Below, piece after piece: positions 8,973 to 37,650 of a DNA stretch of 64,000 nucleotides. The stretch's first letter is position 1. Every line of letters begins with the position of its first letter. The stretch is from an uncultured Armatimonadia bacterium. Lineage in GTDB: Bacteria; Armatimonadota; Zipacnadia; Zipacnadales; UBA11051. The position numbers and the translations under genes are program-made. The notes beneath the pieces were generated by a model, which worked only from the letters and a program-made list of their open reading frames with translations, searched no databases and had not been told where the DNA came from. Location of the stretch: the NCBI GenBank assembly GCA_964390495.1, contig CAYMIN010000008.1, positions 92,831 through 156,830 on the forward strand. The letters are read 5' to 3'.

Positions 8973-9018
8973 GCCCAAGCATCTGGGGCACCACGCAGTC
9001 CGGCGTCGAAGGCCGCTG

Positions 9019-9146
9019 TCGTTGCCGTAGCCTTCAGGAGGGGCCGCAGGCGAGGCGGAAGCGCTAGCTTCCGCCGAGAATCCGGCCCAGTCGTTGTCGT
9101 TGCCCCTCTCCCTGTGGGAGAGGGGAGGGGTGATAGCAGCCTTGCC
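9019..9146. repeat. composite interspersed repeat, modules X-B-A (ccgttgcc..ggaggggccgca | ggcggaagc.tagcttccgccgagaatccggcccag | cgttgtcgttgCCCCTCTCCCtgtgGGAGAGGGG..gccttgcc)
   Basis: Homologous at roughly 85-90% to the element at 18279-18406. Each module contains a short palindrome. Confidence 0.75.
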
Positions 9147-9190
9147 CAGCCCAAACCTGCCCAACCGATTACCATGCTGGAGGCAACCAC

Positions 9191-9769
9191 ATGCAGGATC
9201 AAATCAGCGACATCCTGGAGCATAGTAGCCAGGTGCTGGCGAAATGTTCGGAGAAGCTTCCCGCCCAGCTAGCGGCGGCGGCGCGGATCGTGACGGCCTC
9301 TTTGCGCTGTGGCGGGACGATTGCTTTTTGCGGCAACGGTGGCAGTGCCGCCCAGGCCCAGCACTTCGCCGCCGAGCTGGTGGGCAGGTTCCTCCTCGAC
9401 CGCCCCGCCTACCGGGCCATCGCCCTGACCACCGACACCTCCATCTTGACCGCGGTTGGCAATGACTACGGCTTCGCGGAGGTTTTCGCCCGCCAGGTCG
9501 AGGGACTGCTGAAGCAGAACGACGTGCTGGTGGCGCTCTCGACCAGCGGCAATTCGGAGAACTGCCTGCGCGCGGTGGCGAGGGCCAGGCAACTCAAGGT
9601 CAAGACGATTGGCCTTGCCGGCGGCGATGGCGGCAAGCTCAAGGACCTTACCGACCACTGCATAACCGTGCCCAGCTATGACACTCCGCAGATTCAGGAG
9701 GCCCACTTGGCCCTCGGCCATGCACTCTGCCAGGTCGTGGAGCAAGCGCTGATGCAGGGGGACGACTGA
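9191..9769 (+). CDS. gmhA: D-sedoheptulose-7-phosphate isomerase (SIS domain)
   Basis: SIS-domain motifs (GNGGSAA.A.HFA.EL, STSGNS). GGAGG RBS 9 nt upstream of the ATG. Confidence 0.75.
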   Translation: MQDQISDILEHSSQVLAKCSEKLPAQLAAAARIVTASLRCGGTIAFCGNGGSAAQAQHFAAELVGRFLLDRPAYRAIALTTDTSILTAVGNDYGFAEVFARQVEGLLKQNDVLVALSTSGNSENCLRAVARARQLKVKTIGLAGGDGGKLKDLTDHCITVPSYDTPQIQEAHLALGHALCQVVEQALMQGDD

Positions 9770-9773
9770 GCCG

Positions 9774-10550
9774 ATGGCCTTCGACATAGCAGCCGTGGAC
9801 GCGGCGCTGGCCGGCCAGAGCATCACCTGGTCGGTCGAGTATGTCGCGGAGACCGGCTCGACCAACGAGGACATTGTGCGGTTGGCGCGAGCCGGGGCTG
9901 CAGAAGGTGCGGTGCTGGTTTGCGGGCATCAGGCCGCCGGCTGCGGACGGCAGGGCCGGCAGTGGCTCGACCGGCCCGGGCAGGACTTGCTCTTCTCGGT
10001 GCTGCTGAGGCCGAACTTGCCCGCACGCGAATATGGCATGCTCTCGCTGTTGGCGGCAGTGGCGGTCGCGCAGGCGCTCACCGAGCTGACGGGCAGTCAA
10101 TTCGGGACCAAGTGGCCCAACGATATTGTAATTAGCGGACGCAAAGTCGCCGGCCTGCTCCTGGAGGCCGATGCGAGTGCCGGGTATGCGATAATCGGCA
10201 TTGGCATCAACGTGCTGGGCGCGGCGGATAGCCTCCCCGATGGCCTGACCCAGCCGGCTGGCACGGTCCATGAGGCCACAGGCGTCGAACTCACCCGCGA
10301 AGAGCTACTGGCCGCCATACTGGGCAGGCTCGGCAAGCTCTATGAAGCCGTGGCCGACGAGGGCTGGCAAGCACTGCTGTCGGATTATCGTCAGATAGAC
10401 ACGGTTGTCGGCAGCCAAGTGAAGCTGGTAAGAGGGCAGGAGACTGTTACGGGAATGGCGGAGCGCATTGACGAGGGGGGCCGTCTGGTGATTGCGGGCC
10501 CGGCCGGCCGGATAGTTGCTGACGCCGGTGACGTGCATCTGGTACAATAA
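9774..10550 (+). CDS. birA: biotin--[acetyl-CoA-carboxylase] ligase, catalytic and C-terminal domains only (no N-terminal HTH)
   Basis: BPL motifs GRQGRQW and KWPNDI, and the ~255-aa length. Confidence 0.7.
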   Translation: MAFDIAAVDAALAGQSITWSVEYVAETGSTNEDIVRLARAGAAEGAVLVCGHQAAGCGRQGRQWLDRPGQDLLFSVLLRPNLPAREYGMLSLLAAVAVAQALTELTGSQFGTKWPNDIVISGRKVAGLLLEADASAGYAIIGIGINVLGAADSLPDGLTQPAGTVHEATGVELTREELLAAILGRLGKLYEAVADEGWQALLSDYRQIDTVVGSQVKLVRGQETVTGMAERIDEGGRLVIAGPAGRIVADAGDVHLVQ

Positions 10551-10558
10551 AGGCGATC

Positions 10559-11845
10559 ATGTCACATATCAGCACAAATCAAAAGCACGCTCTAGCGGTT
10601 CCCTATGCTGTGGCGATTTGTTGTTGCGTGTTGGGTCGCCCACAATGTTTTGCGGCAGGAGTGGAGCCGGGCGCCCCGCTGCTGACACAGTGGCGACAGG
10701 CAGTTGTCGAGCGAGTTCAAGGCTACGGCGAACGGCGCAAGCTGGCAGACTTCGGCTGGCCTAGAGGCCAGCTATGGCCCGGAGTCTGTATCGCCGGGAG
10801 CCGGTTGGTATGCCCGGCCTGCGCCCACTCGCAGGACGAGGAGTTGCGGGCATGGGCTCGGAAGATGGAAGCCAGGACTATCTGCAACTGGGATGATGAT
10901 CGCTGGCTGCAGTTCTTTGAGGTCTCCAGAGACGAGCGAACCCCGCTCGGGGCCTTCCGTACGTCCGACGTATGCGTCGAGGACGGCGATTTTAGGCGGT
11001 ATTGTGTGGTTGCCGGAGGCGATTCCCTCTATGCTTTGTTCCTGGATTGGTACCGGCCAATCATCAAGCACGCTTACCGTTTCGTCCCCGGCCAGCCGCC
11101 TCAGGAAGTCCCAATTGAGGCCATACCCAACCGCGAGAGCATCCTTTTGGTAGATTCTGGGCAATGCTATGGGTGTCCGAGCGAATATCGGCACTATGAG
11201 GGCCCGATCTCTCTGGTTGACGCAAATGGCTATGTGCATGCACGGGCTGTGCTGCCTGCAGATTGGGGGCTCTACGGCAGCCCACTGCGCAGCATCAAGG
11301 ACACTGGCGAGCGGTTCCTGGTCGCCTTGAAGGGCGCCGAAGTATCTCACTGGCCGCGTCACGAAAGCTATCTTGAGAAGATGCTGCTGATGGAGATTAA
11401 GCACGGGGTCAAAGAGCACGAGCCGGCGGCGTGCACACTGTTCGTCTCGGCCACAGAGCCGATCTTGCAGCTCTTGCCTGCGCTCGAACCCGAACGGGCC
11501 GAGATTATGGATATCGCGTTTCTGGGGGATTCAATCTACGGTCGCCTGGCTGTGAAGAAGGTGACCAGATATAGGTTCATCAGGGAGCGCGAAAAGCTCT
11601 CTTGCATTGAGCTTTGGGCGTACCGGAACGGGCATGGAGCGGCCTTGGTTGATCTGATCGCCTGGTACGCTGGGCCGCACCAGCATTTCCACTACTGGAC
11701 AGATACCTACGGGGCGATTCACGAGACGATAATCCAGCGCAAGGGCCACTGGAATCCTCATTGGCAACTGGTGCCGGTCCCCTCAGGACCGGAGTGGTTC
11801 CTGTATGCCCGCGAGGACGGTATCTGGCAGGTGAAGCTGCCGTGA
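10559..11845 (+). CDS. hypothetical Cys-rich protein with a probable signal peptide; no recognisable domain
   Basis: Hydrophobic N-terminus (ALAVPYAVAICCCVLG) and Cys pairs CPAC / CYGC. Lies 8 bp after birA and 6 bp before the TPR-CE4 gene, which suggests co-transcription. Confidence 0.4.
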   Translation: MSHISTNQKHALAVPYAVAICCCVLGRPQCFAAGVEPGAPLLTQWRQAVVERVQGYGERRKLADFGWPRGQLWPGVCIAGSRLVCPACAHSQDEELRAWARKMEARTICNWDDDRWLQFFEVSRDERTPLGAFRTSDVCVEDGDFRRYCVVAGGDSLYALFLDWYRPIIKHAYRFVPGQPPQEVPIEAIPNRESILLVDSGQCYGCPSEYRHYEGPISLVDANGYVHARAVLPADWGLYGSPLRSIKDTGERFLVALKGAEVSHWPRHESYLEKMLLMEIKHGVKEHEPAACTLFVSATEPILQLLPALEPERAEIMDIAFLGDSIYGRLAVKKVTRYRFIREREKLSCIELWAYRNGHGAALVDLIAWYAGPHQHFHYWTDTYGAIHETIIQRKGHWNPHWQLVPVPSGPEWFLYAREDGIWQVKLP

Positions 11846-11851
11846 CTGCGC

Positions 11852-13804
11852 ATGGCTAGCGCCTTGGGAGAACATTCATCCGCCAGGTGGCTGCTGGGCA
11901 TGGCGGCCTGTTTGCTGGGTGCCCTGTGGCTGCTGCCGGCGTCCCCGGCTAGCGGCGCCTCGGCGCTGACTGAGGGTGGCCGGCTGCTCACCGCCGGCAA
12001 GTACACCGAGGCCGAGGCGATTTTCCGCGAGGCCGACCAGCAGGATGCTCAGTGCGCGGTGGCCCGGGCCGGTCGCGGCGCCGCGCTGCTGTTCAACGGC
12101 GATGCCGAGGCCGCCGACGAGGCTTTTACCGAAGCGCTGGCGCTGGACCCCAACTGCGTCTCGGCGCTGTTGGGCCGGGGCGCGGCCCAGTACTACCAGC
12201 GGCGCATCCAGGACGCCATGGCCTCATATCGCCAGGCGCTTGCCTATGACACGCCGTATCGGCCGCAGATCCGCGCCTGTGTCGCCCATCTGGCCTGCAC
12301 GGCCGGCTTCTATCGCGCCGCCGAGATGGAGAGCCAGAGCGCCCTGGCGGCTGATGAGGACTGCGAGCTTGCCTGCCAGGTCTTGGCCGCGGCTTGCCTG
12401 GCCCAGCAGCGCCCGGCGCCGGCCCTGAAGGCCCTGACCCAGCCGCTCGGCGAGACCGCCGCCGCCTACCCCGGACTGACGGCCCAGTCGCCGATCTTCG
12501 CCCCCGTCACGGCCTACTATGCCGATCATGGGCTTGACGAGAGTGTGCGTTTGGCGGCTCTGGCCCACGTGGGGGTACACTCCACGGCGCAGGTGGCGCA
12601 GTATATCCAGCCCGCGCCGGTGGAGTTGGGACCTGAGAATGCCCACGGATTGCAGATCCAGTGGCCCAAGCCTGGTGCTCGTGTCAGTGGCGCCATCGAG
12701 GTCAGCGTCGCCGCCCCGGCCGACCTACAGATAGACTATATCACCCTGCTGCTCGACAACCGCTTCGTGGGTATCAGCAACAGCCAGCCATACCGGGTTT
12801 ATGTGGACACCCGTCTGGGCGACGAGGGCCTCCAGCAGCTCCGCTGTGAGGCCTACGGGCCGGACGGAAAGATTGTTGCGGAGGCTTCGCTGCTGATTAC
12901 TGTAATCAATGGCAGCCGCACGCTGATGGCGGAGGAGCTAGCGGCTCGGGCCGAGCTCGGTCTGTTCCTGCAGCACTGCCTGCTGCTGCGCGCCGATCCG
13001 CTGTTACGGTCCCAGCTTTGTGGCCGGGCTTTGGAGATGGCCGGGCGGATGCCGGAGGCGTTGGCTGCCTATGAGTACGGTTTCTCCTACAATCCCCAGC
13101 TCCCTAGTCTGCGCGCTGATCTGCTCTTGGCCTACCACCAGCTAGGCCTGCTGCAGGACCGCCCGCAGGAGATTCACCGCCTTAGCACCGGCGGCCGACG
13201 CATCGCTTTGACCTTTGATGACGGCCCGCACCCGGTGCTGACGCCGGTGATACTTGACCTGCTCGACCGCTACCATGCCAAGGCCACCTTCATGCTGGTC
13301 GGCAAGCAGGCTGAGACCTATCCCGAGCTGGTCCGGCTGATCGTCGAGCGGGGCCATGAACTGGGCAATCACTCTTACAGCCATCGCAATCTCACCCGCC
13401 TCAGCCAGCTTGAGATCGAGCGCGAGCTGGTGATGACACGCCAGGTCATTCGCCGTGCCTGTGGCGAGTTCGTGACCCTGTTCCGTCCGCCGGGCGGCCA
13501 TTACAACGCCTGCGTGCGCCAGGCCGCCCAGATTACCGGCTTCACCACCGTCTTCTGGAACGAGAACATCGGCAGTTACAAGGGCCGCCCTGCTGATGAA
13601 ATCTGCCAGTCAATGCTTACCAAAATCGGCCATAGCAACATCATCCTCCTTCACAACGGCTATGACGAGACTCCTGAGGTTCTGCCCCTGCTGCTGCCCG
13701 AGCTGCACCAGCGCGGCTATCGCATGGACACGGTATCGGCCCTGACTTCGCATCAGCCATTCTCGCTCAGCGACCTGGCGGCTAGCGCGCCGGTGGGGTG
13801 GTAG
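11852..13804 (+). CDS. TPR-repeat protein fused to a polysaccharide deacetylase (CE4/NodB homology) domain
   Basis: N-terminal signal peptide and TPR-like repeats. C-terminal NodB motifs (TFDDGP, HSYSHRNLT, LLHNG). Confidence 0.7.
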   Translation: MASALGEHSSARWLLGMAACLLGALWLLPASPASGASALTEGGRLLTAGKYTEAEAIFREADQQDAQCAVARAGRGAALLFNGDAEAADEAFTEALALDPNCVSALLGRGAAQYYQRRIQDAMASYRQALAYDTPYRPQIRACVAHLACTAGFYRAAEMESQSALAADEDCELACQVLAAACLAQQRPAPALKALTQPLGETAAAYPGLTAQSPIFAPVTAYYADHGLDESVRLAALAHVGVHSTAQVAQYIQPAPVELGPENAHGLQIQWPKPGARVSGAIEVSVAAPADLQIDYITLLLDNRFVGISNSQPYRVYVDTRLGDEGLQQLRCEAYGPDGKIVAEASLLITVINGSRTLMAEELAARAELGLFLQHCLLLRADPLLRSQLCGRALEMAGRMPEALAAYEYGFSYNPQLPSLRADLLLAYHQLGLLQDRPQEIHRLSTGGRRIALTFDDGPHPVLTPVILDLLDRYHAKATFMLVGKQAETYPELVRLIVERGHELGNHSYSHRNLTRLSQLEIERELVMTRQVIRRACGEFVTLFRPPGGHYNACVRQAAQITGFTTVFWNENIGSYKGRPADEICQSMLTKIGHSNIILLHNGYDETPEVLPLLLPELHQRGYRMDTVSALTSHQPFSLSDLAASAPVGW

Positions 13805-16536
13805 CTGCCTTGAGAATGCCTCAGCCGACCTTGTCATTTTTCTTCGCGTCAGCGCTTCTCATCGGCCTGCTGCTTGCCGCTTGGGGGCAGGCTGCAGCCG
13901 CGCCCGCTCTCGACCCGGTATTCGTCAACTACCTGGCTCAGCTCGATTACAACCACGCCCAGTTCGTTGATGCCGGTGTCATAGATTTCTCCTATCTCCA
14001 TGGCCGTGAGGCGGGCCGGCGCGGCTTCCTATTCACCGGCACCGACGGCCATTTCTATTTCGAGGACGGCACTCGGGGCAGATTCTGGGGCCTGAATGTC
14101 GCCAAAGATTCGGTCTTTCAGCCACCGGAGCGCATTGACCAGGCCGTCGCCGCCATCTCCCGGGCCGGCTTCAACCTCGTCCGCATCCATCATATTGACG
14201 GCGTGGAGGGGCTGCTGCCTCTGGAGCGTGCCGGTGATCCCCAGCGCCTTGACCCCGAGAAGCTCGACTGTGTTGACTACTGGATATTCCGGCTGAAGCA
14301 GGCCGGCATCTATGTCTATCTCGACTTGCTCGATTTCCGGACCTTCAGCGAGACCGAGGGTGTTACCAATGCCGCTGCGCTGGGCCGTGCCGCCAAGCCT
14401 TACGCCGTCTTCGACAATACCCTCATCGAGCTGCAGCAGCAGTATGCCCGCCGGCTGCTCATCGAGCACGTCAATCCCTACACCGGTCTGACCTACGCCC
14501 AGGACCCGGCCATCGCCATGATCGAGATCTGCGACGAAAACGGCCTCTACTTCGCCCGCAAGCGCTGGGGCGATCTGGTCGAGCCGTACCGCAGCCAACT
14601 GCGCCGCCAGTTCAACCAGTGGCTGATCGAGCGCTACGGCGACACCCCGACCTTGGCCGAGGCCTGGACTGATGTCGAGGGCCATGAGGGGCTGCTGGCC
14701 GGCGAAAGCCTGGAGGAAGGCACGGTCTGGCTGTTCCCGGAGGCCGGGATGCCGGCCAAGTTCCCGGCGGCCCAGGCCGGCGAGAGTCAGCGCCTGCAGC
14801 GTGGCCGTGCCGCCGACCGCCGCCTGTTCATCAACAGCGTACATGCCGAGTATCTGCGCCGCCTCAGCACCTATCTGCGCCGTCGTGGCGTCCAGGTCCC
14901 GATCACGGCCGTGCTCGACTTCAACCACGTCGCCGACATGCGCACCGTGGCTGACCAGCTCGATTTCATCGGCACCAATTTCTACTACGACCATCCCTCC
15001 TGGCGCGCCGGCAACGAGTGGCATCTGCCGGCCTTCCATGAGGACCTCAATCCGCTGGCTGATACCCGCACCGAGACCTTCATCCCTCGCACGCTGGTCA
15101 GTCGCGTATGGGGCCGCGCCTCGGTAGTGCGCGAATGGAACGTGTGCTGGCCGAATCGTCACCGCGCTGCCGGTATGGTCGAGGCCGCCGCCTACAGCGC
15201 CCTCCAGGACCTCGACGCGGTGATACTCTTCACCTATGACCTGCTCGATGCCAAGCACCGCGTGGAGTTTTTTGATGTCCGCCGCGATCCCACGCGCTGG
15301 GGCCTGATGGGACTTTGCGCTCGTATCTTCCTGCAGGGCGACCTGCGACCGGCTCGCTACCGCGTCGCGATGGGCTTCTCCAAAGTGGACAGCTTCTATC
15401 CCACCTGGCAGCCGATGCCCACGGAGGCCTACAAGCTGGGATGGGTCTGTGGATTCCACACGCTCTTTTTCGACGAGAAGGCTCCCGCCGGCGGTCCGGA
15501 CTTGCTGATGGCCTCGGGCCGCTCCGCCGGCGGCGTCTATGACCGCGACAATACGCTCATCTGCAGCAACTGGGACGCCGAGGACCTGCTCGACCACCAG
15601 CGCGACCAAAGCCTCGAGCACAAGAGCGGCTATCAGGTCGCGACCGTTCCCGGAGATTATGTTTATTACACCTTCGGCGGCACCATGTTCTCCGCCGGCC
15701 ACAAGGACCGCTTGCAGACCGATCCCGCCTTCCTGGTGGCGGATGTCAAGGCCCAGGACTTGCGCCCTATCGGCATTGATGCCGCCGGCGAAGGCTGTGT
15801 CGGCTTTCGCGATGTGCGCCGCAACAATTATGTATTCCGACGGCTCACGGCTCATCAGAAGCTGCGGGTGGCGCTGGATGCCCTCGGCCAGATCTTCGGC
15901 GCACCCATTTCCCACGATTACGTCAACACCGGTGTGTACAGGTCCGATACTGGCCAGATTACTCGCGACCTCAACGCCGGCTTGCTGAGGGTTGATGCCC
16001 CTTGTTTGCACGCGGTGGCGGGCGCTCTCAGCAACTCCGCCGGGGCCAAGACTTCGCAGTTGCAGGTGACCACTGCCTCCCCAACCGGCGCGGTTATCTG
16101 GGCAAGTCTTGACGGCAAGTCGCCTACGGCGTCGCAGCATTGGGTACTCAAGATGGCGACGGTGGCGGCCAATACCGGCCAGAGCATGAGGCTGCATTAC
16201 TCGAACGCTGAGAAGACCGTCTATGTGCTGGAGCAGCTGGGTGACGCGCCGATTACGACGCTGGCGGAGAAGACCTCGCGGCCCACGGTGGTATCCCTGG
16301 CCGGGCGCGAGGTCTTGCGCATCTATCTGCAAAACGGCACCTGGGAGTTGGTCTATGAGCAGAGCCGCTATTACCTCTCATGCGACACCGCCGGTGTGCA
16401 GGTGGAGCTCCCCGGCTTAGGGCCGACGGTCAGCGTGGCTGCGGTAACTGATGGTGCGCCCGCATCGCCGCAGTCACAGCCTCAGCCCTTCGCCTATCCG
16501 CAGGCCTTCACCTTAGTACTGGTAACTCGCCCTTGA
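13798..16536 (+). CDS. large secreted TIM-barrel glycoside hydrolase-like protein (clan GH-A / GH5-like), 912 aa
   Basis: Signal peptide (FFFASALLIGLLLAAWGQAAAAPA). N-terminal region FWGLNV..GFNLVRIHH resembles GH-A TIM barrels. Overlaps the upstream gene by 7 nt. Confidence 0.45.
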   Translation: MVAALRMPQPTLSFFFASALLIGLLLAAWGQAAAAPALDPVFVNYLAQLDYNHAQFVDAGVIDFSYLHGREAGRRGFLFTGTDGHFYFEDGTRGRFWGLNVAKDSVFQPPERIDQAVAAISRAGFNLVRIHHIDGVEGLLPLERAGDPQRLDPEKLDCVDYWIFRLKQAGIYVYLDLLDFRTFSETEGVTNAAALGRAAKPYAVFDNTLIELQQQYARRLLIEHVNPYTGLTYAQDPAIAMIEICDENGLYFARKRWGDLVEPYRSQLRRQFNQWLIERYGDTPTLAEAWTDVEGHEGLLAGESLEEGTVWLFPEAGMPAKFPAAQAGESQRLQRGRAADRRLFINSVHAEYLRRLSTYLRRRGVQVPITAVLDFNHVADMRTVADQLDFIGTNFYYDHPSWRAGNEWHLPAFHEDLNPLADTRTETFIPRTLVSRVWGRASVVREWNVCWPNRHRAAGMVEAAAYSALQDLDAVILFTYDLLDAKHRVEFFDVRRDPTRWGLMGLCARIFLQGDLRPARYRVAMGFSKVDSFYPTWQPMPTEAYKLGWVCGFHTLFFDEKAPAGGPDLLMASGRSAGGVYDRDNTLICSNWDAEDLLDHQRDQSLEHKSGYQVATVPGDYVYYTFGGTMFSAGHKDRLQTDPAFLVADVKAQDLRPIGIDAAGEGCVGFRDVRRNNYVFRRLTAHQKLRVALDALGQIFGAPISHDYVNTGVYRSDTGQITRDLNAGLLRVDAPCLHAVAGALSNSAGAKTSQLQVTTASPTGAVIWASLDGKSPTASQHWVLKMATVAANTGQSMRLHYSNAEKTVYVLEQLGDAPITTLAEKTSRPTVVSLAGREVLRIYLQNGTWELVYEQSRYYLSCDTAGVQVELPGLGPTVSVAAVTDGAPASPQSQPQPFAYPQAFTLVLVTRP

Positions 16537-16614
16537 GATTCTTGCAGGAAGCCGCCTGTCGGAAGATGAAATGGAGGCTGCACCAGGTAGTTCGCAATGT
16601 GCAGGGAGGACGCC

Positions 16615-18024
16615 ATGTCAGACTCGCGGTTCGACAATGTATCGCCGCTGGACTTCCGCTACTACGGTCCCGATGACCGGCTTCGGGCCATGCTGGACCC
16701 TTACGTGACCGAGCGGGGTCGCGTCCATAGCGAGGCAATGGTCGAGGCGGCCGCGGTCGCAGTCCTGGCCCGTCGCGGCGTCTGTTCGCAGGCCGTGGCC
16801 GATGAGGTTGCCGCCGCTGCCGAGGCCGTCTCAGCGGAGGCCGTGGCCCATGAGGAGGCGCGCATTCATCACAATATCCGCGCTCTGGTCAACGTCCTGC
16901 GCAGCCAGGTCAGCGATGCAGCCAAGCCCTACGTGCACCTCTGCCTGACCAGCTTTGATGTGATTGACACGGCGGTGGCGTGGCGGCTGCAGCAGGCGGC
17001 TTACCGGGGGATACTTCCACAACTGGCCGAGCTTCAGCGCGTGCTGCTAGACCTGGCCCGCCGCGAGGCCGACCGTCTTCAGATCGGTCGCACCCACGGC
17101 CAGCATGCCGTCCCGATTACCTTCGGCTTCGCCCTGGTCGGCTTTGTCAGCCGGCTGGGCGGGCGGATCGAGGCAATTAAGGCGGCCGCCGACAACCTCT
17201 GCGGCAAAATCAGCGGAGCCGTCGGCGCCTACAATGCCAGCGCCTTGTTTTTCGATGACCCGGATGCGTTCGAAGCCGAGGTCTTAGCCGAGTTGGGCCT
17301 CAAAGCCTCGCCCAGTTCCACGCAGATAGTCGAGCCGGAGCCGGTGGCTGATTACTATCATGCGCTGATCTCCACTTTCGGCGTCCTGGCCGATCTGGCT
17401 GATGACATGCGCCACTTGCAGCGCACCGAGATCGCCGAGGTGGGGGAGAAGTTTGAGGCCGAGCAGGTTGGCTCCTCGACCATGCCGCACAAGCGCAATC
17501 CCTGGAACTTCGAGAATGTCAAGAGCATGTGGAAGGCCTTTATGCCCCGGATGGTCACGGTCTATGCCGACCAGCTCTCCGAGCACCAGCGCGATTTGAG
17601 CAATTCGGCTTCCTCGCGCTTCAATCCGGAGATAATCGTGGCCCTGGCCAACAGTGTCCAGCGGCTGAGAGGAATCATGTCGAAGCTGGTCACTGACGAA
17701 GCGCGGATGGCGCGGAACTTCGCGATGACTTCGGGGATGGTGGCCGCTGAGCCGGCGTACATTCTGCTGGCGGCGCACGGTCATCCCGACGCTCACGAGA
17801 CGATGCGCAAGCTGACCTTACAGGCTCAGGCCAGCGGCCGGCCGTTGTGGGACCTGCTTTGCGAAGACGAGGCCTTGGCTCCTTACCTGCAGCAGTTGAC
17901 CGAGGCGCAGCGGGCGATCTTGCAGGACCCGGCGGCCTACACGGGGATTGCGGCCGACAAGACCAGGGCCCTGTGCGACGACTACGAGCGCCGCTTAGCG
18001 GTACTGATGGACGAGCTAGAATGA
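16615..18024 (+). CDS. purB: adenylosuccinate lyase
   Basis: N-terminal VSPLDFRYYG and the signature GSSTMPHKRNP, both as in E. coli PurB. ATG at 16615 is preceded by GGGAGGA; the ORF opens 6 codons earlier. Confidence 0.8.
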   Translation: MSDSRFDNVSPLDFRYYGPDDRLRAMLDPYVTERGRVHSEAMVEAAAVAVLARRGVCSQAVADEVAAAAEAVSAEAVAHEEARIHHNIRALVNVLRSQVSDAAKPYVHLCLTSFDVIDTAVAWRLQQAAYRGILPQLAELQRVLLDLARREADRLQIGRTHGQHAVPITFGFALVGFVSRLGGRIEAIKAAADNLCGKISGAVGAYNASALFFDDPDAFEAEVLAELGLKASPSSTQIVEPEPVADYYHALISTFGVLADLADDMRHLQRTEIAEVGEKFEAEQVGSSTMPHKRNPWNFENVKSMWKAFMPRMVTVYADQLSEHQRDLSNSASSRFNPEIIVALANSVQRLRGIMSKLVTDEARMARNFAMTSGMVAAEPAYILLAAHGHPDAHETMRKLTLQAQASGRPLWDLLCEDEALAPYLQQLTEAQRAILQDPAAYTGIAADKTRALCDDYERRLAVLMDELE

Positions 18025-18133
18025 CAAGACTGTTGCGTAGCGCTACGCGGCCGGCGACTGTGATGGCGAGTCCAGTCAGACCTATAATCCATAATCGCAG
18101 CGGTCGGGTGTTTGGCCCACCTATCCCCCTTTT

Positions 18134-18406
18134 GCTTCCCCCTTCCCGGGTACCCACGCCAAAGGCGTGGGTGAGGAAGGGGGTTAGGGGGTTAGGAAAC
18201 ATAATTGCGTGGGTCGGGCAAGCCGAAAGGCAACGTCTCAGCCTTTTGGCGCGTAGGTCGGGCTTTCCAGCCCGACGCCGTTGCCTTTGAGTCGTTTGGA
18301 GGGGCCGCATACGAGGCGGAAGCTTAGCTTCCGCCGAGAATCCGGCCCAGCCGTTGTCGTTGTCCCCTCTCCCTGGGAGAGGGCCAGGGTGAGGGCCGCC
18401 GTTGCC
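18134..18406. repeat. repeat cluster: module C (cccccttcccgggtaCCCACGCCaaagGCGTGGGtgaggaaggggg), module D (gcgtagGTCGGGCtttccaGCCCGACgcc), then composite X-B-A
   Basis: C recurs at 20480 and (degenerate) 37600. D recurs at 20558/20598 and 27951. X-B-A recurs at 9019. Confidence 0.75.
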
Positions 18407-18468
18407 CCGTCGCTTGCGCCCGATTGCAGACATAGTCATACCTAATCCCCTCAACAGGGAGGTGGCCC

Positions 18469-19986: not shown

Positions 19987-19998
19987 GTGTAACTCACA

Positions 19999-20457
19999 AT
20001 GAGTCCTGAGGTTATCATCGCAGCACTAATCAGTCTGGTTCTCTGGGGCGTCGGTGGAGTCTTCGACAAGCTGGCGCTCAATGCCATGCGCGGGCTCTCG
20101 CCGGTGACTGCGGTGATGGCGCGGATGCCTTTTGCCGTGCTGGTTGTCGGCATTGCGGGTTGGTACATGGGCATGTGGGATGATCTGCAGCGGATGGCCC
20201 CGATGACCTTTATCTATTTGGCCGCCAGTGCGCTGCTGGCAGCGGTGTTAGGGCAGGCGGCCTATTTCTTTGCAGCCGGCGGCGGCGAGATCTCCAAGGT
20301 GGTCGTCTTCACCTCCGCATGGCCTCTGGTGACGGTATTTGTAGCGGCGGCCTGGCTAGGGGAGAGTCTGGCCTGGCAGAAGCTGCTGGGAACTGCCTTG
20401 GTCATCAGCGGCCTGATGGTCCTCGCTATCCCCGGCAAGCCCAGAGAAAAATCATAA
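19999..20457 (+). CDS. half-size EamA-domain (DMT superfamily) membrane protein, paralogue 1
   Basis: A single EamA-like hydrophobic domain of ~150 aa. About 35% identity to the paralogue at 20845 (WGVGGV.DK.ALN.M.G.SP.TA, VFTS..P..TVF.AA..LGE.L.W.KL.GT..V..GLM.L). Confidence 0.6.
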   Translation: MSPEVIIAALISLVLWGVGGVFDKLALNAMRGLSPVTAVMARMPFAVLVVGIAGWYMGMWDDLQRMAPMTFIYLAASALLAAVLGQAAYFFAAGGGEISKVVVFTSAWPLVTVFVAAAWLGESLAWQKLLGTALVISGLMVLAIPGKPREKS

Positions 20458-20479
20458 CTACTCACCGAACCCCGTTTTG

Positions 20480-20670
20480 ATTCCCCCTTCCCGGGTACCC
20501 ACGCCGAAGGCGTGGGTGAGGAAGGGGGCTAGGCGGTTAGGCCGCATTATTCATGAACGCGTAGGTCGGGCATCTCTAGCTTGCATTGTTCGCGAAGGCG
20601 TAGGTCGGGCTTTCTAGCCCGACGCCGTTACCAGTCACGGACCAGCCAGGCTAGAAAGCCTGGCCTACGT
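20480..20670. repeat. repeat cluster: module C, tandem module D (one partial, one full), then module E hairpin (ccaggctagaaagcctgg)
   Basis: Module C here is about 90% identical to the copy at 18134. The cluster occupies most of the 387-bp spacer between the two EamA paralogues. Confidence 0.7.
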
Positions 20671-21291: not shown

Positions 21292-21304
21292 CGGACTTGC
21301 CGTC

Positions 21305-22186: not shown

Positions 22187-22206
22187 ACCTCGCTACTTGC
22201 TGCGGT

Positions 22207-23001: not shown

Positions 23002-23018
23002 CGCTTCGCCAATCGCGA

Positions 23019-26157: not shown

Positions 26158-26298
26158 GGGGTCTATACGCCTTCTCACGCGCTACTGGTGATTGGATTGC
26201 AGCCGGCTTGCAGCCTTGTCGTGTCGGTTGGCCGCCGCCTGGAAAAAGTGTGCACAATTATAGCTTTGGCGAGTCCGCTTTGCAAGCTGCGCCGTCGC

Positions 26299-27804: not shown

Positions 27805-27950
27805 TGCTTCTGCTCTTTCATGCACCTTGATAGGCATTTACTGACTTGTTGGTATTGAGGCTTGTACTATGGTTTACACATCTCAGCAGTTGCCCCGTAG
27901 TCCGTGCCCCCCGCATATCATCCCGTAGCTCGGGCATCCCAGCACCCTCC

Positions 27951-28050
27951 GCGTAGTTCGGGCTTTCCAGCCCGACAGCCGTTGCCGTTGCTGCTTGCCG
28001 TTATGCCTCTCCCTGTGGGAGAGGGCTAGGGTCAGGGCTGCCGTTGCCGC
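27951..28050. repeat. modules D + A (cgcgtagttcGGGCtttccaGCCCgacagccgttgcc | gttatgCCTCTCCCtgtgGGAGAGGGctagggtcagggctgccgttgcc)
   Basis: Same module order as inside the cluster at 18248-18406. Confidence 0.7.
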
Positions 28051-28070
28051 ATGCCGGCCCCTAAACCCGG

Positions 28071-29966
28071 CTATTCCTCTGCCTCCTCATCATCCTCGCC
28101 CTTTTCATCCTCGCTCGGCAGCTCTTCGAGGCCCATGACATATTGCAGCTTCTGCCGGTCATACCCCTCGGCGATTCTCGCGGCGTTGAGGTACCACCGG
28201 TTCCCCTCCCCATATTCGAAGCAGTGGAAGAAGCTCAGGATCGAGGCCAGTTGCGCCCGCGTGGTGCGGCGAATGATATTGAGTTGCGCCCAGAGTTGGT
28301 TGAACGGCAGGCCCTTGTCATCGGCCAGTAGCAGCCTCATCACTTCTCTCAGGGGCGTGGGCCGATGGCTGAACCGATCGCGCCACGCGAACAGCTCATG
28401 CAGGGTGTCCTTACCGATATAGGTCTGGGCATCGGTCTCGTCGTCGTGGTGCAACAGATAGCGGCCGATGGCGTCGGCCTTGCTGATACTCAGCAGCGCC
28501 CCGGACGGCGGCAGATGGGTCTGATACCATGCTGACAGGCCGTATATCAGCCCGGTGTCCTTATTCAGCCACACATCCAGCAACTCATCGCCGTCGCAGT
28601 CGAGATTGACCATTGTCAGGGCGTCTTCAGCGGCGAAGAACTCACTGTCCATGGTGCGCAGCTTGATCGTGCCGGCGAGGTGGTGGTGGTACAGCACCGG
28701 GTAGGTCAGGGTTTCGGCCTTAGCGGCCACTGGTGCCACGTACAGCTCCCCGACGTCATCGTAGTACGGATCGGCGGCTGCCTCCAGCGCCTCCGCTGCC
28801 AGGCCCTCCGGATGCAGGATAACGTCCTCCGAGGTGAGTTCCCCCTCCTTGTTGACGGCTACGGTCCATTCCTCGGTCAGCAGCGCTCGCGGCACCGTCC
28901 TGGCCCACGGCGGTATTGCCGCAGCTCGCAGGTAGCGCCCCGGCTGTAGCTTCCTGACTCCCTCCACCCCCATCAGCAGCTCTGCCACTGCTTGCGCCGC
29001 CGGTGCGTATTTGCGCTGGTTGGGCGTCAAGCCCAGCACGTCCGCCAGCATCTGCTCGATGGTGAAGGGGGCCTTCGCGTGCTCGACCAGTCCTACAATG
29101 CCCGCCCGCTCTTGGTCCGAAAGCTCATAGCGCTTATCAGCGGCTATATCTTTGGCCAGGATCTGCTCCATATCAACTTCGTACTCCTGCGCCTCGGCCT
29201 TGGGCGCCTGCTTGCGCAGTGATTTCTCCAGGTCCCCGACCCATTCCGCAACTACCCAGCCCGGACCGGACACGCACACAAAGCGTTGCTTTTCATCATA
29301 TACCATCTGCCGCAGCAGCTCAGTCGCATCGTATTTCTCGCCCTGATGGCATCCGACCAAGAACCCCAGCGCCTTATTGGCTAGCGAGCGGTCTGCGGCC
29401 TGCAGCACATTGTAGGCGGTTTCCGTAAGACTCCGCGAGCCCAGCTTCTCATTGGTGCAGGTCTCCATGACCTCGGCCAGCTCGGCGTCCTCGGTTAAGC
29501 CGTTGAGGTATAGTACCCGCGCGGTATCGGTGCCGGGCATCGGCGTGAACACCCACTCGGGCAGGTAGATCAGTCCCTCCTCGAGCTCGGCTAGTTGTCC
29601 TCGTTGCAGCAGGCTTGCCACCAGGTCCCGGAAGAAGGCTCCGGTGCCTTTTTTGGTCCGCACCACTTCACTGGTCAGCAGCGCCTTGGCTATGGGTCTG
29701 CCGTAGCCGCTCAGCACGGCCTCGAATGCCCCGCCTACGGGTATTTCCGTCAGTGTTTGCCGGTAGGCGATATCGTAGGAGCCACCGATGGCTACGAAGC
29801 GTCCGTCCTCCGCGAGCACGGCTTCGACGAATTCGGCGGCGATATCGAGCTTTTCTGGCAGCAACGCGACCAGTTCTCTGCTCCTGGTCGGTCCGGGGCG
29901 GTAGATTAGTATATCGAACAGCAAGTCGGCTAGATAGCGCCTGGCCAGCTCTTTCTCTCTCAGCAT
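28071..29966 (-). CDS. hypothetical 631-aa protein with an acidic C-terminal tail (EDEKGEDDEEAEE); no recognisable domain
   Basis: Long ORF with a GGAGG RBS about 11 nt upstream of the ATG. Bracketed by repeat modules: D+A on the 3' side, A-like at 30735 on the far 5' side. Confidence 0.4.
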   Translation of the reverse strand: MLREKELARRYLADLLFDILIYRPGPTRSRELVALLPEKLDIAAEFVEAVLAEDGRFVAIGGSYDIAYRQTLTEIPVGGAFEAVLSGYGRPIAKALLTSEVVRTKKGTGAFFRDLVASLLQRGQLAELEEGLIYLPEWVFTPMPGTDTARVLYLNGLTEDAELAEVMETCTNEKLGSRSLTETAYNVLQAADRSLANKALGFLVGCHQGEKYDATELLRQMVYDEKQRFVCVSGPGWVVAEWVGDLEKSLRKQAPKAEAQEYEVDMEQILAKDIAADKRYELSDQERAGIVGLVEHAKAPFTIEQMLADVLGLTPNQRKYAPAAQAVAELLMGVEGVRKLQPGRYLRAAAIPPWARTVPRALLTEEWTVAVNKEGELTSEDVILHPEGLAAEALEAAADPYYDDVGELYVAPVAAKAETLTYPVLYHHHLAGTIKLRTMDSEFFAAEDALTMVNLDCDGDELLDVWLNKDTGLIYGLSAWYQTHLPPSGALLSISKADAIGRYLLHHDDETDAQTYIGKDTLHELFAWRDRFSHRPTPLREVMRLLLADDKGLPFNQLWAQLNIIRRTTRAQLASILSFFHCFEYGEGNRWYLNAARIAEGYDRQKLQYVMGLEELPSEDEKGEDDEEAEE

Positions 29967-30115: not shown

Positions 30116-30160
30116 GTTGCTGTTGGCGTTACTATAGTTGTTCCCGTTGTCGTTGTCTTG
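30116..30160. repeat. degenerate hexanucleotide tract (GTTGNN)x7: gttgct gttggc gttact..gttgtt ccc gttgtc gttgtc ttg
   Basis: Read directly from the sequence; it lies in non-coding DNA. Confidence 0.5.
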
Positions 30161-30337
30161 AGGAGGGGCCGGCTGAACGCAGTGAAACCGCCCCGCGTGC
30201 CGCTGCCGTTCACCGCCTCCCGTTTCGGAGGGTACCCACTGTGGAACAATGGGTGAGCAAGGGCGTAGGCGCCATCGGCTTCCGGAAGGTCCCGGTCTTG
30301 GCGATCGCTGGCGTGGGGTATGGTTGTGTCAGCCGCC

Positions 30338-30734: not shown

Positions 30735-30792
30735 CGCTGCCCTTCTCCCCCGACCGTCTCGGGAGAGGGCGGAGGGCTAGGTGCCGTTAGCT
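30735..30792. repeat. module A variant (ccCTTCTCCCccgaccgtctcGGGAGAGGGcggagggctaggtgccgttagc)
   Basis: Shares the CTCTCCC..GGAGAGGG palindrome and the ctaggg..gccgtt tail with the copies at 9097, 18361, 28005 and 37521. Confidence 0.6.
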
Positions 30793-34982: not shown

Positions 34983-35056
34983 CGCGTTCCTCCGAGGCTT
35001 GGCATCACATACCATACTAATTGTATCCGCAACGAGCGACTCAGTCAATTCTGTTG

Positions 35057-37279
35057 CTATCCGCCCGGCAATTCCCCTCGCAGCCGCTCTTGCAGCCGGG
35101 TGTAGCGCCGCATTTCGTCGGCGCGCTTCACCGCCGTCCACAGGCCCTTCCTGTCGCCGATTACTACCGCCATCTTCTCCGCTCGCGTCAGGGCGGTGTA
35201 GAGCAGGTTCCGCCGCAGCATGATGTAGTGGGTGCTGTGGAACACCATCACCACCGCCGGGTACTCGCTGCCCTGGGATTTGTGCACCGTCAGCGCGTAG
35301 GCAAGCTGCAGTTGGTCGGCCTCGTTGAAGTCATACACTACGCGCCCCTGATCGAACTCCACGACGAAGCAGCGGGCCTCGGCGTCAATCTCGACCAGCC
35401 GCCCGATGTCTCCGTTATAGACCTCTTTGTCGTAGTTGTTGACGTTTTGCAGCAGCCGGTCGCCTTCGCGGAAGGTCTGCTCGCCGCGCAGCAGTTCCAG
35501 TCGCCCCGGCGCGGCCGGGTTGAGCTTCTCCTGCAGCGCGCGGTTGAGCTCCGTCACTCCGGCCGGCCCTCGGTGCATCGGCGTGATGACCTGGATATCA
35601 TCGGGGGCGAAATCGAGCCGCGGCAGGCCGGAGGTCACTACCCGCAGCACCGCCTCCGCCACCTGGTCGGGCCGCTGGCGTTCCATCAGTACGGTGTCCT
35701 CGCCTTCCCAGTCGCGCCCCGGGGTGAACTCGGGGAATTCGCCTTCTCTGATGCGGTGGGCGTTATAGATGATGTCTCCGCCTTCGCGCTGGCGGAAGAC
35801 CTTGTGCAGCCGGGCGACGGGGAAGATACCGGAGGCGACTATATCTTTGAAGAACGATCCCGGGCCGACGCTGGGCAACTGGTCGGCGTCGCCGATGAAT
35901 ACGATTTTGGTGCCGGGCTTGATGGCGGCAGTCAGCTCGTTGGCTAGCAGCACGTCCACCATGCTGGATTCGTCAACGATCAGCAGGTCTATCTGCAGCG
36001 GCTCCTCGGCATTGTGAGAGAAGGCGTGGGTGCGCGGATCGTAGGCCAGCAGCCGGTGGATGGTACTGGCCGGTTTGCCGGCGAGTTGCGACAGTCGCTT
36101 GGCCGCTCGACCGGTTGGCGAGCACAAGGCCACCGGCCAGCCTAGGGCATCACAAGCCTCGCACAGCGCCCGTGTCACCGTGGTCTTGCCGGTTCCGGGG
36201 CCGCCGGTAATGACCGAGACCGGTCCGCCCAGGGCCATGCGCACCGCTCCGATCTGCTCTCCCGACAGCTCGGTAGCGCCCATGGCCGTTCGTTGCCCCA
36301 GCCATCGCTCCAGGTACTCGCGTTTCGGGGCCGGTTCGCTCTCCGCCGCGTTCAGTCGCAGCAGCCGCTCCGCCAGGCTTCTTTCCGCTTTCAGCATCGC
36401 CGGCAGATAGTAGGCCGGGGTGCCGTCATAGTCTTCCAGCTCCAGCTCACCTTGGGTCATGGCCCGGTCGAGCTGGACCTCGACCAGCTCCTCATCTACT
36501 TGCAGCAGGCGCTGGGCGGCGCCCAGCAGATTCTCGCGCGGCAGGTAGAAATGGCCGTGATTGCCGGCCATCATCAGCACGTGCTTGAGGCCGGCGCTGA
36601 GGCGGGCCGGGTCCTGCGGCTCGATGCCGGCGATGCGCGCGATCTTGTCGGCAGTGTGAAAGCCGATGCCGGAGATCTCGTCGGCCAGTCGGTAGGGCTC
36701 CTGCTCGATGATGGTCATTGATTGGGATTCGAAGCGCTCGTAGATCCGCGCCGCCAACGCCGGTCCCAGGCCGTGCTGCTGCAAAAACACCATCACCCGG
36801 TGCGCGTGTTCGCTGGCCTTCCAGGCCTCGCGCAGGGCCGCCGCCCGCTTGCGCCCGATGCCTTCGACCTCAGTCAGCCGCTCGGGGTGCTTGTCGAGGA
36901 TGTCCAGCGTATCTGTCCCGAACTTGTCAACCAGCCGCTGGGCCATCTTTGGGCCGATGCCCTCGAACAGGCCCGAGCCCAGGTACGCCACGATCGCCTG
37001 CTTGGTGACCGGACGCACCATCTCATAGTGTTCGAACTGAAACTGCCGCCCGTATTTGCGGTCATCCACCCAGCAGCCGTGCAGCCGCAGGTTCTCGCCG
37101 ATCGCCAGCCCCAGTGTGCTGCCCACGGCGGTGACCTGTCCAGCTTGGGTCTGCAGGCCGACGACAGTGTAGCCGTTGGCCGCGTTGTGATAGACGATTC
37201 TGGCGGCGGTGCCTTCCAGGACCTGCCGCTCGCCTTTCACTTGTTGATTTCGCGTATTTTCTTCATCGAATAGGCGCAT
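35057..37279 (-). CDS. recD2: RecD2-type SF1B DNA helicase
   Basis: N-terminal HhH (GIGPKMAQRLV), Walker A GGPGTGKTT, Walker B LLIVDESSM, and a C-terminal SH3-like/2B region. Length 740 aa. Confidence 0.8.
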   Translation of the reverse strand: MRLFDEENTRNQQVKGERQVLEGTAARIVYHNAANGYTVVGLQTQAGQVTAVGSTLGLAIGENLRLHGCWVDDRKYGRQFQFEHYEMVRPVTKQAIVAYLGSGLFEGIGPKMAQRLVDKFGTDTLDILDKHPERLTEVEGIGRKRAAALREAWKASEHAHRVMVFLQQHGLGPALAARIYERFESQSMTIIEQEPYRLADEISGIGFHTADKIARIAGIEPQDPARLSAGLKHVLMMAGNHGHFYLPRENLLGAAQRLLQVDEELVEVQLDRAMTQGELELEDYDGTPAYYLPAMLKAERSLAERLLRLNAAESEPAPKREYLERWLGQRTAMGATELSGEQIGAVRMALGGPVSVITGGPGTGKTTVTRALCEACDALGWPVALCSPTGRAAKRLSQLAGKPASTIHRLLAYDPRTHAFSHNAEEPLQIDLLIVDESSMVDVLLANELTAAIKPGTKIVFIGDADQLPSVGPGSFFKDIVASGIFPVARLHKVFRQREGGDIIYNAHRIREGEFPEFTPGRDWEGEDTVLMERQRPDQVAEAVLRVVTSGLPRLDFAPDDIQVITPMHRGPAGVTELNRALQEKLNPAAPGRLELLRGEQTFREGDRLLQNVNNYDKEVYNGDIGRLVEIDAEARCFVVEFDQGRVVYDFNEADQLQLAYALTVHKSQGSEYPAVVMVFHSTHYIMLRRNLLYTALTRAEKMAVVIGDRKGLWTAVKRADEMRRYTRLQERLRGELPGG

Positions 37280-37511
37280 GGTCTCGTATCGGCTTTGCCA
37301 ATGGAGTTTTCCACAATTCTATCACAGTGTGGGGGCGAATTTGTGGGCAATTCCGCTTTTGGTGGGGATAAACCTAGCACGACCAGCCCAATAGAACGCC
37401 TTCAGCGCCGGTATTTCAGGCCTTTCATGCGTTTCCGACTTATCCACACTAGGCCGCACAAGTTTTCCACAATTCACCCGACTTATCCACAACCTCTGCT
37501 CACAACACCCA

Positions 37512-37650
37512 TGCCGTTGTCGTTCTCCCCTCTCCCGTTTCGGGAGAGGGCTAGGGTGAGGCCTGCCGTTGCAGGGGCACATGGCATGCGCCCGTGCCTC
37601 CTAACACCCTAGCCCCCTTCCCTATCAGGGAAGGGGGAATGGGGGATAGG
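37512..37650. repeat. module A + GC hairpin + degenerate module C (cgttCTCCCCTCTCCCgtttcGGGAGAGGGctagggtgaggcctgccgttgc ... cctaacaccctagCCCCCTTCCCtatcaGGGAAGGGGG)
   Basis: Lies between recD2 and the CBM9/GH-like gene. Confidence 0.65.

Follow-up and report, generated by a model that had tools for sequence, protein, structure and literature searches.

Intergenic spacers of an uncultured Armatimonadota bacterium hold a mixed set of REP-type hairpins, BoxC-type motifs, and a miniature transposable element

We analyzed a 64,000-nucleotide stretch of contig CAYMIN010000008.1 from an uncultured Armatimonadia bacterium (assembly GCA_964390495.1), called the window below, whose intergenic spacers are crowded with short modular repeats. 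The spacers have probably been colonized by a community of small, noncoding, and most likely mobile repeats, with new copies landing beside or inside older ones. Three kinds coexist in the spacers: hairpins of the repetitive extragenic palindromic (REP) type (modules D, E, and F2 and a family that we call frame hairpins), triplex motifs of the BoxC type (modules A, C, and C′), and a 243-bp miniature inverted-repeat transposable element (MITE). An earlier reading of the letters alone (the sequence-only reading) had described the repeats as modular, hairpin forming, and similar to MITEs and to REPs and bacterial interspersed mosaic elements (BIMEs), and this general description is supported. Two of the modules are already known, one cluster is a conventional MITE, and the remainder add new members to the REP kind, unusual in being nested. 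As two of the repeats are near copies of repeats from Escherichia coli and Haemophilus, the window represents a richly mixed yet essentially ordinary case.

The quoted repeat sequences were present at all the loci previously described, with correct coordinates, and every copy lies outside the best open reading frames (ORFs), as had been claimed. Intergenic DNA makes up 10% of the window (6.4 kb), and the repeat intervals given below, when summed, cover ∼1.5 kb of it. In a self-BLAST of the window (E ≤ 0.01), self-similarity was limited to spacers, falling at known repeat loci (9037-9124, 18125-18406, 20470-20629, 24820-24849, 27950-28048, and 37513-37572) and in one additional family beyond the range covered earlier (1182-1211, 44137-44199, and 51353-51410). 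The density is far above chance, as originally stated: the 20-mer tail of module B, CCGCCGAGAATCCGGCCCAG, has four matches (three of them exact), whereas 0.01 are expected, and the doubled joint motif CGTTGYCGTTGYC (≤1 mismatch) has seven, each within a repeat and on the + strand, with 0.44 expected. The heptamer CGTTGCC lies in intergenic DNA at 8 of its 12 + strand sites, despite the small intergenic share. The hairpins are more stable than shuffled sequences (z = −2.6 to −5.3), and module edges are sharp when the window clusters are piled up against 1 Mb of related loci.

These results bear on the possibility that the repeats are merely chance similarities between GC-rich, low-complexity sequences or an artifact of metagenome assembly. 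The window has a G+C content of 60 to 66%, and some copies are weak, such as A′ at 30735 and a B-like site at 18659, which lies in a gene, has three mismatches, and proved to be a chance match. The exact 20-mers and the confinement of self-similarity to spacers nevertheless argue against chance, and the window sequence was recovered at 99.97 to 100% identity in four independent assemblies, which excludes an assembly artifact. The modules also occur in three other metagenome-assembled genomes (MAGs) and in many metagenome contigs. In a scan of one genome per species, the exact B tail had 16 copies in MAG CSMAG_1176, 5 in a MAG of “Candidatus Zipacnadia” (a class of Armatimonadota), and a single copy in one further Armatimonadota MAG, while the remaining genomes gave single chance matches only. 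The modules are therefore not confined to the window; such confinement is what the sequence-only reading had named as fatal to its claim. We regard chance or artifact as refuted for practical purposes.

The best-matching named relatives of the window’s adenylosuccinate lyase (purB) are from Armatimonadota MAGs. Comparison with two related species, in which purB is 83% and 78% identical to the window gene, was made over a 21-kb region from each. The gene run CAP-SIS-BPL-deacetylase-purB-FGGY-EamA-EamA is kept in both relatives, and the 83% relative remains colinear on to gltX. The spacers differ greatly in length: CAP/SIS measures 218 nt in the window but 44 nt in the 83% relative and 116 nt in the 78% relative, purB/FGGY measures 444 nt versus 33 and 80 nt, EamA/EamA measures 387 nt versus 16 and 8 nt, and the spacer between gltX and the next gene measures 233 nt versus 121 nt in the 83% relative. 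Apart from one isolated palindrome resembling the stem of A (in relative L167; such labels denote sampled loci or contigs), neither 21-kb region contained the repeat families. This check, which had been proposed along with the original description, thus found orthologous spacers that are short (8 to 121 nt) and repeat free, indicating that the window clusters are lineage-specific insertions. At the EamA pair (19999-21291), two half-size genes that lie 8 to 16 nt apart in the relatives are separated by module C and the MITE, an insert that may uncouple their expression.

Modules D and E can be classed as classical REPs, which consist of a head and a hairpin; the hallmark recognized by REP-associated tyrosine transposases (RAYTs) is GTAG (GT[AG]G) 5′ of a short palindrome. 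Module D reads GC-GTAG-GTCGGGCT-ttcc-AGCCCGAC, with an 8-bp stem and a 4-nt loop. The heads are GC-GTAG-GTCGGGC in D, GTAG-GCCAGGC in E, and GTGG-ACAGGCT in F2. Compared with the REP Hpar2 of Haemophilus parasuis (GTAGGTCGGGCATTTATGCCCGAC; GTAGGTCGGGC-loop-GCCCGAC), D is identical except for the loop, so the statement that the repeats match no recognized family was wrong for D apart from its loop, as it was for A (see below). A literature search by sequence strings returned this REP as its only match and nothing for the frame hairpin.

The window holds three full and three partial copies of D. Coordinates of repeats here and below refer to the + strand unless stated otherwise. A D copy with the 3′ tail GCCGTTGCC lies at 18251-18285 and is preceded at 18207-18250 by an orphan D 5′ arm (GCGTGGGTCGGGC) and a 31-nt spacer that is the reverse complement of the spacer before XB frame hairpins (described below) in related MAGs. 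The interval 27925-27976 contains a degenerate D-like REP (27925-27945) followed by a D of sequence GCGTAGTTCGGGCTTTCCAGCCCGAC (27951-27976). At 44574-44601, motif T (ATCTGCATAACTGCAGT) is joined to the 3′ arm of the D hairpin, the same pair that follows XB hairpins in most copies in related MAGs. A further D (20598-20623) and an inverted E (20645-20668) form one long hairpin (−46.2 kcal/mol; z = −4.4), a doublet like those of REPINs and BIMEs, and D-E doublets recur across many loci. A metagenome scan placed D on at least 116 contigs of soil, sediment, and hypersaline-lake origin, with up to seven copies per contig among the matches listed, and the majority of these contigs carry none of the other modules.

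Outside the window, D-type REPs flank RAYT genes. Contigs L051 and L138 each carry an ORF with HUH and Y motifs that scores above the cutoff of the Pfam Y1_Tnp family and has a D-type REP and an inverted REP (iREP) on its flanks; L139 has a RAYT homologue with the same arrangement, and L067 holds a further homologue. A profile built from these four proteins retrieved thousands of relatives, many of them named RayT in their source records and several of them from Armatimonadota MAGs. The Armatimonadota RAYT loci L171 to L175 are textbook REPtrons, with arrays of related REPs and CGTTG-containing linkers. By tblastn, no RAYT was found in the window, in the CSMAG_1176 loci, or in the Zipacnadia loci.

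These contigs have peculiarities of their own. In L139, the RAYT gene and its REP/iREP are edged by microsatellites (9160-9440 and 10150-10281), namely, (TTTCCGTCGYCG)n, (TCGTTCG)n, and more than 20 GGCCAC units. In L051, a D-type REP at 858-881 lies within the RAYT reading frame itself and is translated as ...GRAFHPD.... On the strongly AT-rich contig L138 (1400-2419), the RAYT gene is surrounded by the same GC-rich REP, GTAGGTCGGGCTTTCCAGCCCGAC, a finding suggestive of either horizontal transfer of REP and RAYT together or their tight coevolution. On the minus strand of L019 (∼4850-4960), tandem 28-nt units consist of the D 5′ arm CCCGTGGGTCGGGC plus ∼14 nt, and the array ends in a complete D hairpin.

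The D and E modules resemble the REPs, BIMEs, and REPINs of E. coli, Pseudomonas, Stenotrophomonas, and H. parasuis in being extragenic palindromes of 24 to 26 nt with a GTAG head, in forming inverted doublets and arrays, in adjoining RAYT genes on other contigs, and in building a mosaic with short linkers, as in BIMEs, where REPs alternate with short linker motifs. They differ in the host phylum, here Armatimonadota, and in their perfect stem, whereas the E. coli RAYT needs a mismatch. Moreover, the linker here is a CGTTG-type hexamer that can grow into microsatellite-like runs, the REP-like frame hairpins have many different nested tops, and the mosaic also contains triplex motifs and a MITE.

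Module A is the BoxC/PIT/TMECO intrastrand-triplex motif known from E. coli. Its consensus, CCCTCTCCC-N1-5-GGGAGAGGG-CTA-GGGTGAGGG, fits the published pattern 5′-CCCTCNCCC-N3-6-GGGNGAGGG-N3-GGGNGAGGG. Holder et al. (2015, PMC4666352) reported 3,610 occurrences of this pattern from 262 genomes of proteobacteria and related motifs rich in G/C from cyanobacteria. With one mismatch permitted, the copy at 37528-37561 fits this pattern with one deviation, and the copy at 18365-18394 fits except that its first loop is 1 nt long; the copy at 28005-28038 has two deviations, and the third block of the copy at 9104-9133 is degenerate. A 47-nt A query from the window matched 4,384 of the 5,426 complete E. 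coli genomes, and every match lay in a spacer without annotation; the best were 87 to 89% identical over 36 to 40 nt. Two E. coli copies that we retrieved read CCCCTCTCCCTGAGGGAGAGGGTTAGGGTGAGGGG and CCCCTCTCCCTGTGGGAGAGGGTCGGGGTGAGGGC. Further references for the motif are Bachellier and Hoyne and Maher (2000).

Modules C and C′ share this three-block plan, having AA/TT where A has AGA/TGA, and C contains a complete extra hairpin (GGGTACCCAC...GTGGGTGAG) inside loop 1. As read from the sequence, every A of block 2 in A, C, and C′ is faced by a T or A in the third block, and every G by a G. Such mirror symmetry is a requirement of the purine-motif triplex, and all three modules are putative intrastrand triplexes; nearest-neighbor folding takes no account of triplexes. 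Like BoxC in E. coli, A is intergenic and multicopy, and A-bearing loci are rearranged or expanded relative to those of relatives. Unlike in E. coli, the host belongs to Armatimonadota, whereas reported hosts are proteobacteria; (GCCGTT)n linkers flank A, while E. coli copies lack them; and the loop-1 hairpin of the C family exceeds the 1- to 6-nt loops of the published search.

Copies of A occur in several contexts. The one at 9092-9146 has the 5′ linker CGTTGTCGTTGCC and reads CCCTCTCCC-TGT-GGGAGAGGG-GAG-GGGTGATAG, ending in the degenerate block 3; the one at 18351-18406 has the linkers CGTTGTCGTTGTC and GCCGTTGCC at either side. At 27977-28049, a (GCCGTT)n-like tract (27977-28004) precedes an A copy ending in GCCGTTGCC. 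A solo A with both linkers, CCGTTGTCGTTCTC-CCCTCTCCC-gtttc-GGGAGAGGG-cta-GGGTGAGGC-ctGCCGTTGCA, lies at 37512-37572, and the degenerate BoxC-like A′ at 30735-30792 has only one weak match elsewhere. Module C is found at 18118-18196 (CCCCCTTCC ... GGAAGGGGG-tta-GGGGGTTAGG, with the loop-1 hairpin GGGTACCCACGCC-aaa-GGCGTGGGTGAG) and at 20470-20540, where its third block, GGCGGTTAGG, is the source of the TTAG target of the MITE. C′, a simple un-nested unit of the triplex type, lies on the minus strand at 37595-37650 (CCCCCTTCCC-tgata-GGGAAGGGGG-cta-GGGTGTTAGG). Decayed copies that had been overlooked fill 30140-30262, comprising a linker CGTTGTCGTTGTC, a 34-nt minimal frame hairpin (30162-30195), and a C-like unit (30230-30257) with the nested hairpin GGGTACCCAC..ATGGGTGAG.

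The sequence-only reading had divided the repeats into five independent linear modules. Modular hairpin repeats are indeed present, but the partition was partly wrong: X and B together are one hairpin, D′-D-E lies inside the MITE, and C is nested. X and B form a single hairpin belonging to a lineage-specific superfamily, the unit defined by pile-up being GGAGGGGCC...GGCCCAG. The XB1 hairpin has an outer stem GGGCCG/CGGCCC, a 7-by-7 internal loop, and an inner stem GGCGGAAGC/GCTTCCGCC. A search with the invariant frame alone (GGAG-GGGCCG...CGGCCC-A) returned 55 exact-frame elements, all in this lineage; 53 of them fold with the outer stem, and together they bear 16 different tops. Some tops contain the GGGTACCCAC hairpin that is also nested in C, and the smallest element is the 34-nt minimal hairpin. 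The head of the frame hairpin is GGAG rather than the GTAG of REPs. Overall, the frame hairpins look like REPs whose loop took up further hairpins.

XB1 is found at 9037-9090 (formerly the 3′ end of X plus B) and at 18298-18350. The interval 24820-24882 consists of an XB1 3′ fragment (GCTTCCGCCGAGAATCCGGCCCAG), the linker CCGTTGCCTTGAGTCGTT, and a decayed frame hairpin (GGGCCG-ccaa-CGGCCC) that adjoins the thiC stop at 24883. Two frame hairpins absent from the original list have different tops: GTCGGACG..TGTCCGAC at 44371-44423 and, on the minus strand at 44471-44523, GGGCTTTGC-caa-GCAAAGCTC followed by GCCGTTG. The earlier copy list was therefore real but short, as it also lacked the repeats at 30140-30262 and 44574-44601 and family F at 1174, 40703, 44129, and 51340. 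In four contig ends of CSMAG_1176 (L021, 1-226; L027; L040; and L041), at least 120 to 226 nt directly upstream of XB1 are identical. This common sequence, also put at 190 nt or more, contains no convincing ORF, and Rfam gave no match to it; it suggests a longer multicopy element, possibly an insertion sequence (IS), with XB1 at its end.

Family F occurs beyond the range first described. At 1174-1244, the hairpin CGACAGGCA-tccc-TGCCTGTCG is followed by a degenerate second hairpin, and two diverged family F hairpins occupy 40703-40779 (40703-40726 on the + strand and 40755-40779 on the − strand). Doublets of F and F2 lie at 44129-44199 and 51340-51410, F2 being the REP-like sequence GTGG-ACAGGCT-ggga-AGCCTGT with its GTGG head.

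The locus at 20480-20670 had been described as the series C-D′-D-E. Its sequences are real, but D′, D, and E are not independent modules: they are the interior of one 243-bp MITE that runs to 20783 (20541-20783; D′ at 20559-20571, D at 20598-20623, and E on the minus strand at 20645-20668). The element is bounded by a TTAG duplication (20537-20540 and 20784-20787) and by the terminal inverted repeats (TIRs) GCCGCATTATTCATGAA and TTCGTGAATAGTGCGGG, of which the first agrees with the reverse complement of the second at 14 of 17 positions; the 17-bp family consensus is CCCGCAYTATTCAYGAA, with agreement at 15 of 17. We found at least 12 metagenome copies at 95 to 98% identity, noncoding and in 204- or 243-bp forms, the shorter lacking an internal 39-bp duplication (D′). 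Target duplications are TTAG in the window and L073, CTAG in L079, and CTAA in L157 and are perfect in four of seven complete copies; L115 has one mismatch, and the flanks of L158 (a dimer) and L001 (chimeric or recombinant) are unmatched.

Elements of the IS5 type typically duplicate a YTAR target. Like MITEs of that type, the element is short and noncoding, with 17-bp TIRs, a 4-bp YTAR duplication, and many near-identical copies; it differs in having a REP doublet inside and in landing in other repeats, and the IS5 assignment comes solely from the duplication. As for an autonomous partner, no pair of ends 0.8 to 2 kb apart was seen in 1 Mb of sampled loci. The resemblance to neisserial Correia elements noted earlier extends to the dense, intergenic, mosaic arrays and goes no further. 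In Correia elements, the TIRs measure 26 bp and the duplication is TA, whereas the TIRs here are 17 bp long, of a different sequence, and accompanied by a YTAR duplication.

The window MITE is inserted in the third block of C, and in L097 another copy lies within the CTAG loop of a B hairpin. What looked like a lone MITE left end in L110 proved to be one arm of a D-like hairpin, the loop between the arms holding ∼290 nt of nested repeats. Together, these three cases mean that the clusters are nested as well as concatenated. The 369-kb ENA contig k141_1384248 (ERZ27256778; L001; 19184-19700 corresponds to the window from 20538 leftwards) matches the window exactly as far as the MITE, beyond which its DNA is different, including a reversed A module and a gene for an 1,144-amino-acid (aa) Ig_Rha78A_N protein; its MITE flanks are mismatched, CTAG and TTAG. 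This break could reflect either recombination between MITE copies or a chimeric contig, the latter being conceivable because the MITE repeat is longer than the assembler’s k.

The joints between modules had been said to coincide repeatedly with a short motif, (c)cgttg(c)c, and they do carry a recurrent CGTTG(C/T)C. At 9012-9036, a tract of CGTTGY-type linker precedes the frame hairpin. In the lineage of the window, the motif lies 5′ of A in 24 of 31 copies and 3′ in 16 of 31; for XB hairpins, the figures are 15 and 9 of 26. Across many lineages, 165 D copies have the 3′-flank consensus N-CCGTT. At the RAYT loci, REP hairpins are followed by ACCGTTGG in L171 (at least 10 tandem units), by GAAGTCGTTG in the L175 arrays, and by CCGCCGTGTTGG in L173, and long runs of related short units border the REPs of L139. 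The E. coli BoxC copies are without the motif. The D flanks, the arrays at RAYT loci, and the absence from BoxC indicate that the motif belongs to the REP/RAYT system of this group and is no generic recombination core.

A shared joint also raises the idea of cassette arrays built by a site-specific recombinase acting at CGTTG(C/T)C, in the manner of neisserial intergenic mosaic elements (NIMEs) or integron attC sites. One short motif bounds A, XB, and D alike; module order differs among loci, as described originally (we observed A-XB, XB-A, D-A-XB, D-XB-A, and tandem A-A-A); and the frame hairpins combine conserved bases with free tops, as attC sites do. NIMEs are likewise dense intergenic mosaic arrays with units bounded by a recurrent short repeat. 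Their units are, however, bounded by 20-bp inverted dRS3 repeats linked to a phage integrase, whereas the joint here is a direct hexamer linked to REP/RAYT loci. In place of the inverted core repeats used by tyrosine recombinases, we found direct CGTTGY hexamers in variable tandem number, often (GCCGTT)1-4. In unrelated lineages, too, D-type REPs are followed by this tail where the other modules are missing, and no integrase or recombinase gene was seen adjoining any cluster. Finally, the motif occurs within REP arrays around RAYT genes, which ties the joint to the Y1 system. We therefore give the recombinase explanation little credence.

Selection at the RNA level offers another account, in which the modules are terminators, stabilizers of 3′ ends or intercistronic mRNA, or small RNAs that owe their abundance to function and not to mobility. 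The stable hairpins, the almost invariant core of XB1 in the window and in three MAGs, the placement of all window clusters between codirectional genes, and the copy adjoining the thiC stop are all compatible with it, and E. coli REPs are known to stabilize upstream mRNA. However, whether the neighboring genes are on the + or the − strand, the modules are on the + strand; read along with those genes, they would yield transcripts of both senses. The hairpin at the thiC stop had been proposed as a possible terminator, but none of the modules has a T run behind it, and the number of terminator-like sites does not exceed that in shuffled sequence (11 sites in 8900-28100 versus a shuffle mean of 12.4); none of them is a module hairpin, and one spans the C/MITE junction. 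Rfam searches of the whole window (gathering thresholds), of 8900-38000 (E ≤ 5), and of four related loci (E ≤ 1) gave only chance microRNA-like matches. Further points against function as RNA are that the orthologous spacers lack the modules in two relatives that share the operon structure, that the 5′ arm of the XB1 inner stem has uncompensated changes, and that, according to the literature, purine-motif triplexes do not form in RNA. On balance, an origin in RNA-level selection seems unlikely.

The thiC gene itself (24883-26298; Pfam ThiC_Rad_SAM) has a promoter-like TTGCAA-17-TATAAT at 26285-26257 on the minus strand, conserved in relative L167. No thiamine pyrophosphate (TPP) riboswitch was matched at thiC, even at E ≤ 5.

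Colonization by mobile repeats, our preferred explanation, would involve two transposition systems. REP-type units would be moved in trans by a RAYT, a Y1 HUH transposase acting on single-stranded hairpins, and the CGTTG(C/T)C joint may be the linker at which the RAYT cuts and joins. The MITE would be moved by an IS5-like DDE transposase. Clusters would grow because the repeats themselves offer targets, in the form of loops, YTAR sites, and linkers, and any benefit to the host, if there is one, would be secondary.

Several observations weigh against this explanation. Neither a RAYT nor a DDE transposase gene lies within the 64-kb window, and no module insertion-deletion polymorphism was seen among the four assemblies of the strain. 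For A and the frame hairpins, the argument for movement is presence versus absence relative to species at ∼80% protein identity, and the near invariance of the XB1 core in three MAGs could mean selected function instead of recent spread. The D stem GTCGGGCT/AGCCCGAC is perfect, while the E. coli RAYT requires a stem mismatch; this enzyme also cuts at CT dinucleotides, and the GCCGTT linker has no CT on this strand. How BoxC spreads is unknown in any organism, according to the literature on the motif. Lastly, every asymmetric X, B, A, and D copy in the window is on the + strand regardless of gene direction, a uniformity that neither the mobile model nor GC skew explains. Orientation had no link to local GC skew for B (53 copies) or D (124 copies); A tails gave a ratio of 10:1, from too few independent loci.

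Some other features of the window deserve mention. An ORF at 10559-11845 (428 aa) lies between the biotin ligase and deacetylase genes, where both relatives lack it, and is probably a gene insertion. Its G+C content at third codon positions (0.69) is the lowest of the accepted calls bar one (0.68, an ORF with an over-long start), and it is not identifiable as a transposase, having no Pfam match. A conserved 631-aa protein encoded at 28071-29966, also without a Pfam match, is present in several metagenomes and in relative L167 (627 aa). Five 9-mers resembling DnaA boxes, including both exact TTATCCACA sites of the window, are found at 37307-37491, beside the A/C′ repeats and upstream of a gene for a RecD2-like helicase (35057-37279, minus strand). 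These boxes may mark a promoter regulated by DnaA or a portion of an origin; the minimum of the cumulative GC skew is at a different place, ∼48 to 50 kb.

At the level of the genome, the repeats enlarge spacers by as much as 24-fold (48-fold when the EamA pair is compared with that of the second relative), separate a half-transporter gene pair, and coincide with a contig breakpoint between assemblies. Given this inflation and the breakpoint, those who annotate or bin such MAGs should expect breaks and false ORFs at the repeats. More broadly, the results extend REP and BoxC, textbook enterobacterial repeats, almost base for base to an uncultured phylum, and the match across phyla argues for either horizontal spread with RAYT genes or strong structural constraint. 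The most interesting lead is the CGTTG linker, which connects one RAYT clade with REPs, frame hairpins, and BoxC-like motifs and hints at how a RAYT might choose its cut sites and at how BoxC might move. A bolder version, which we think unlikely, is that one RAYT clade, widespread in Armatimonadota and elsewhere, cuts and joins at CGTTG linkers and so shuffles any hairpin that lies between two of them. If that were true, the shuffled cargo would include BoxC, whose spread has gone unexplained since the 1990s, and hairpins nested in the loops of others. The clusters would then be products of a general shuffling of hairpin cassettes, and such a mechanism would also account for the near identity of BoxC and REP sequences between phyla as far apart as Proteobacteria and Armatimonadota.

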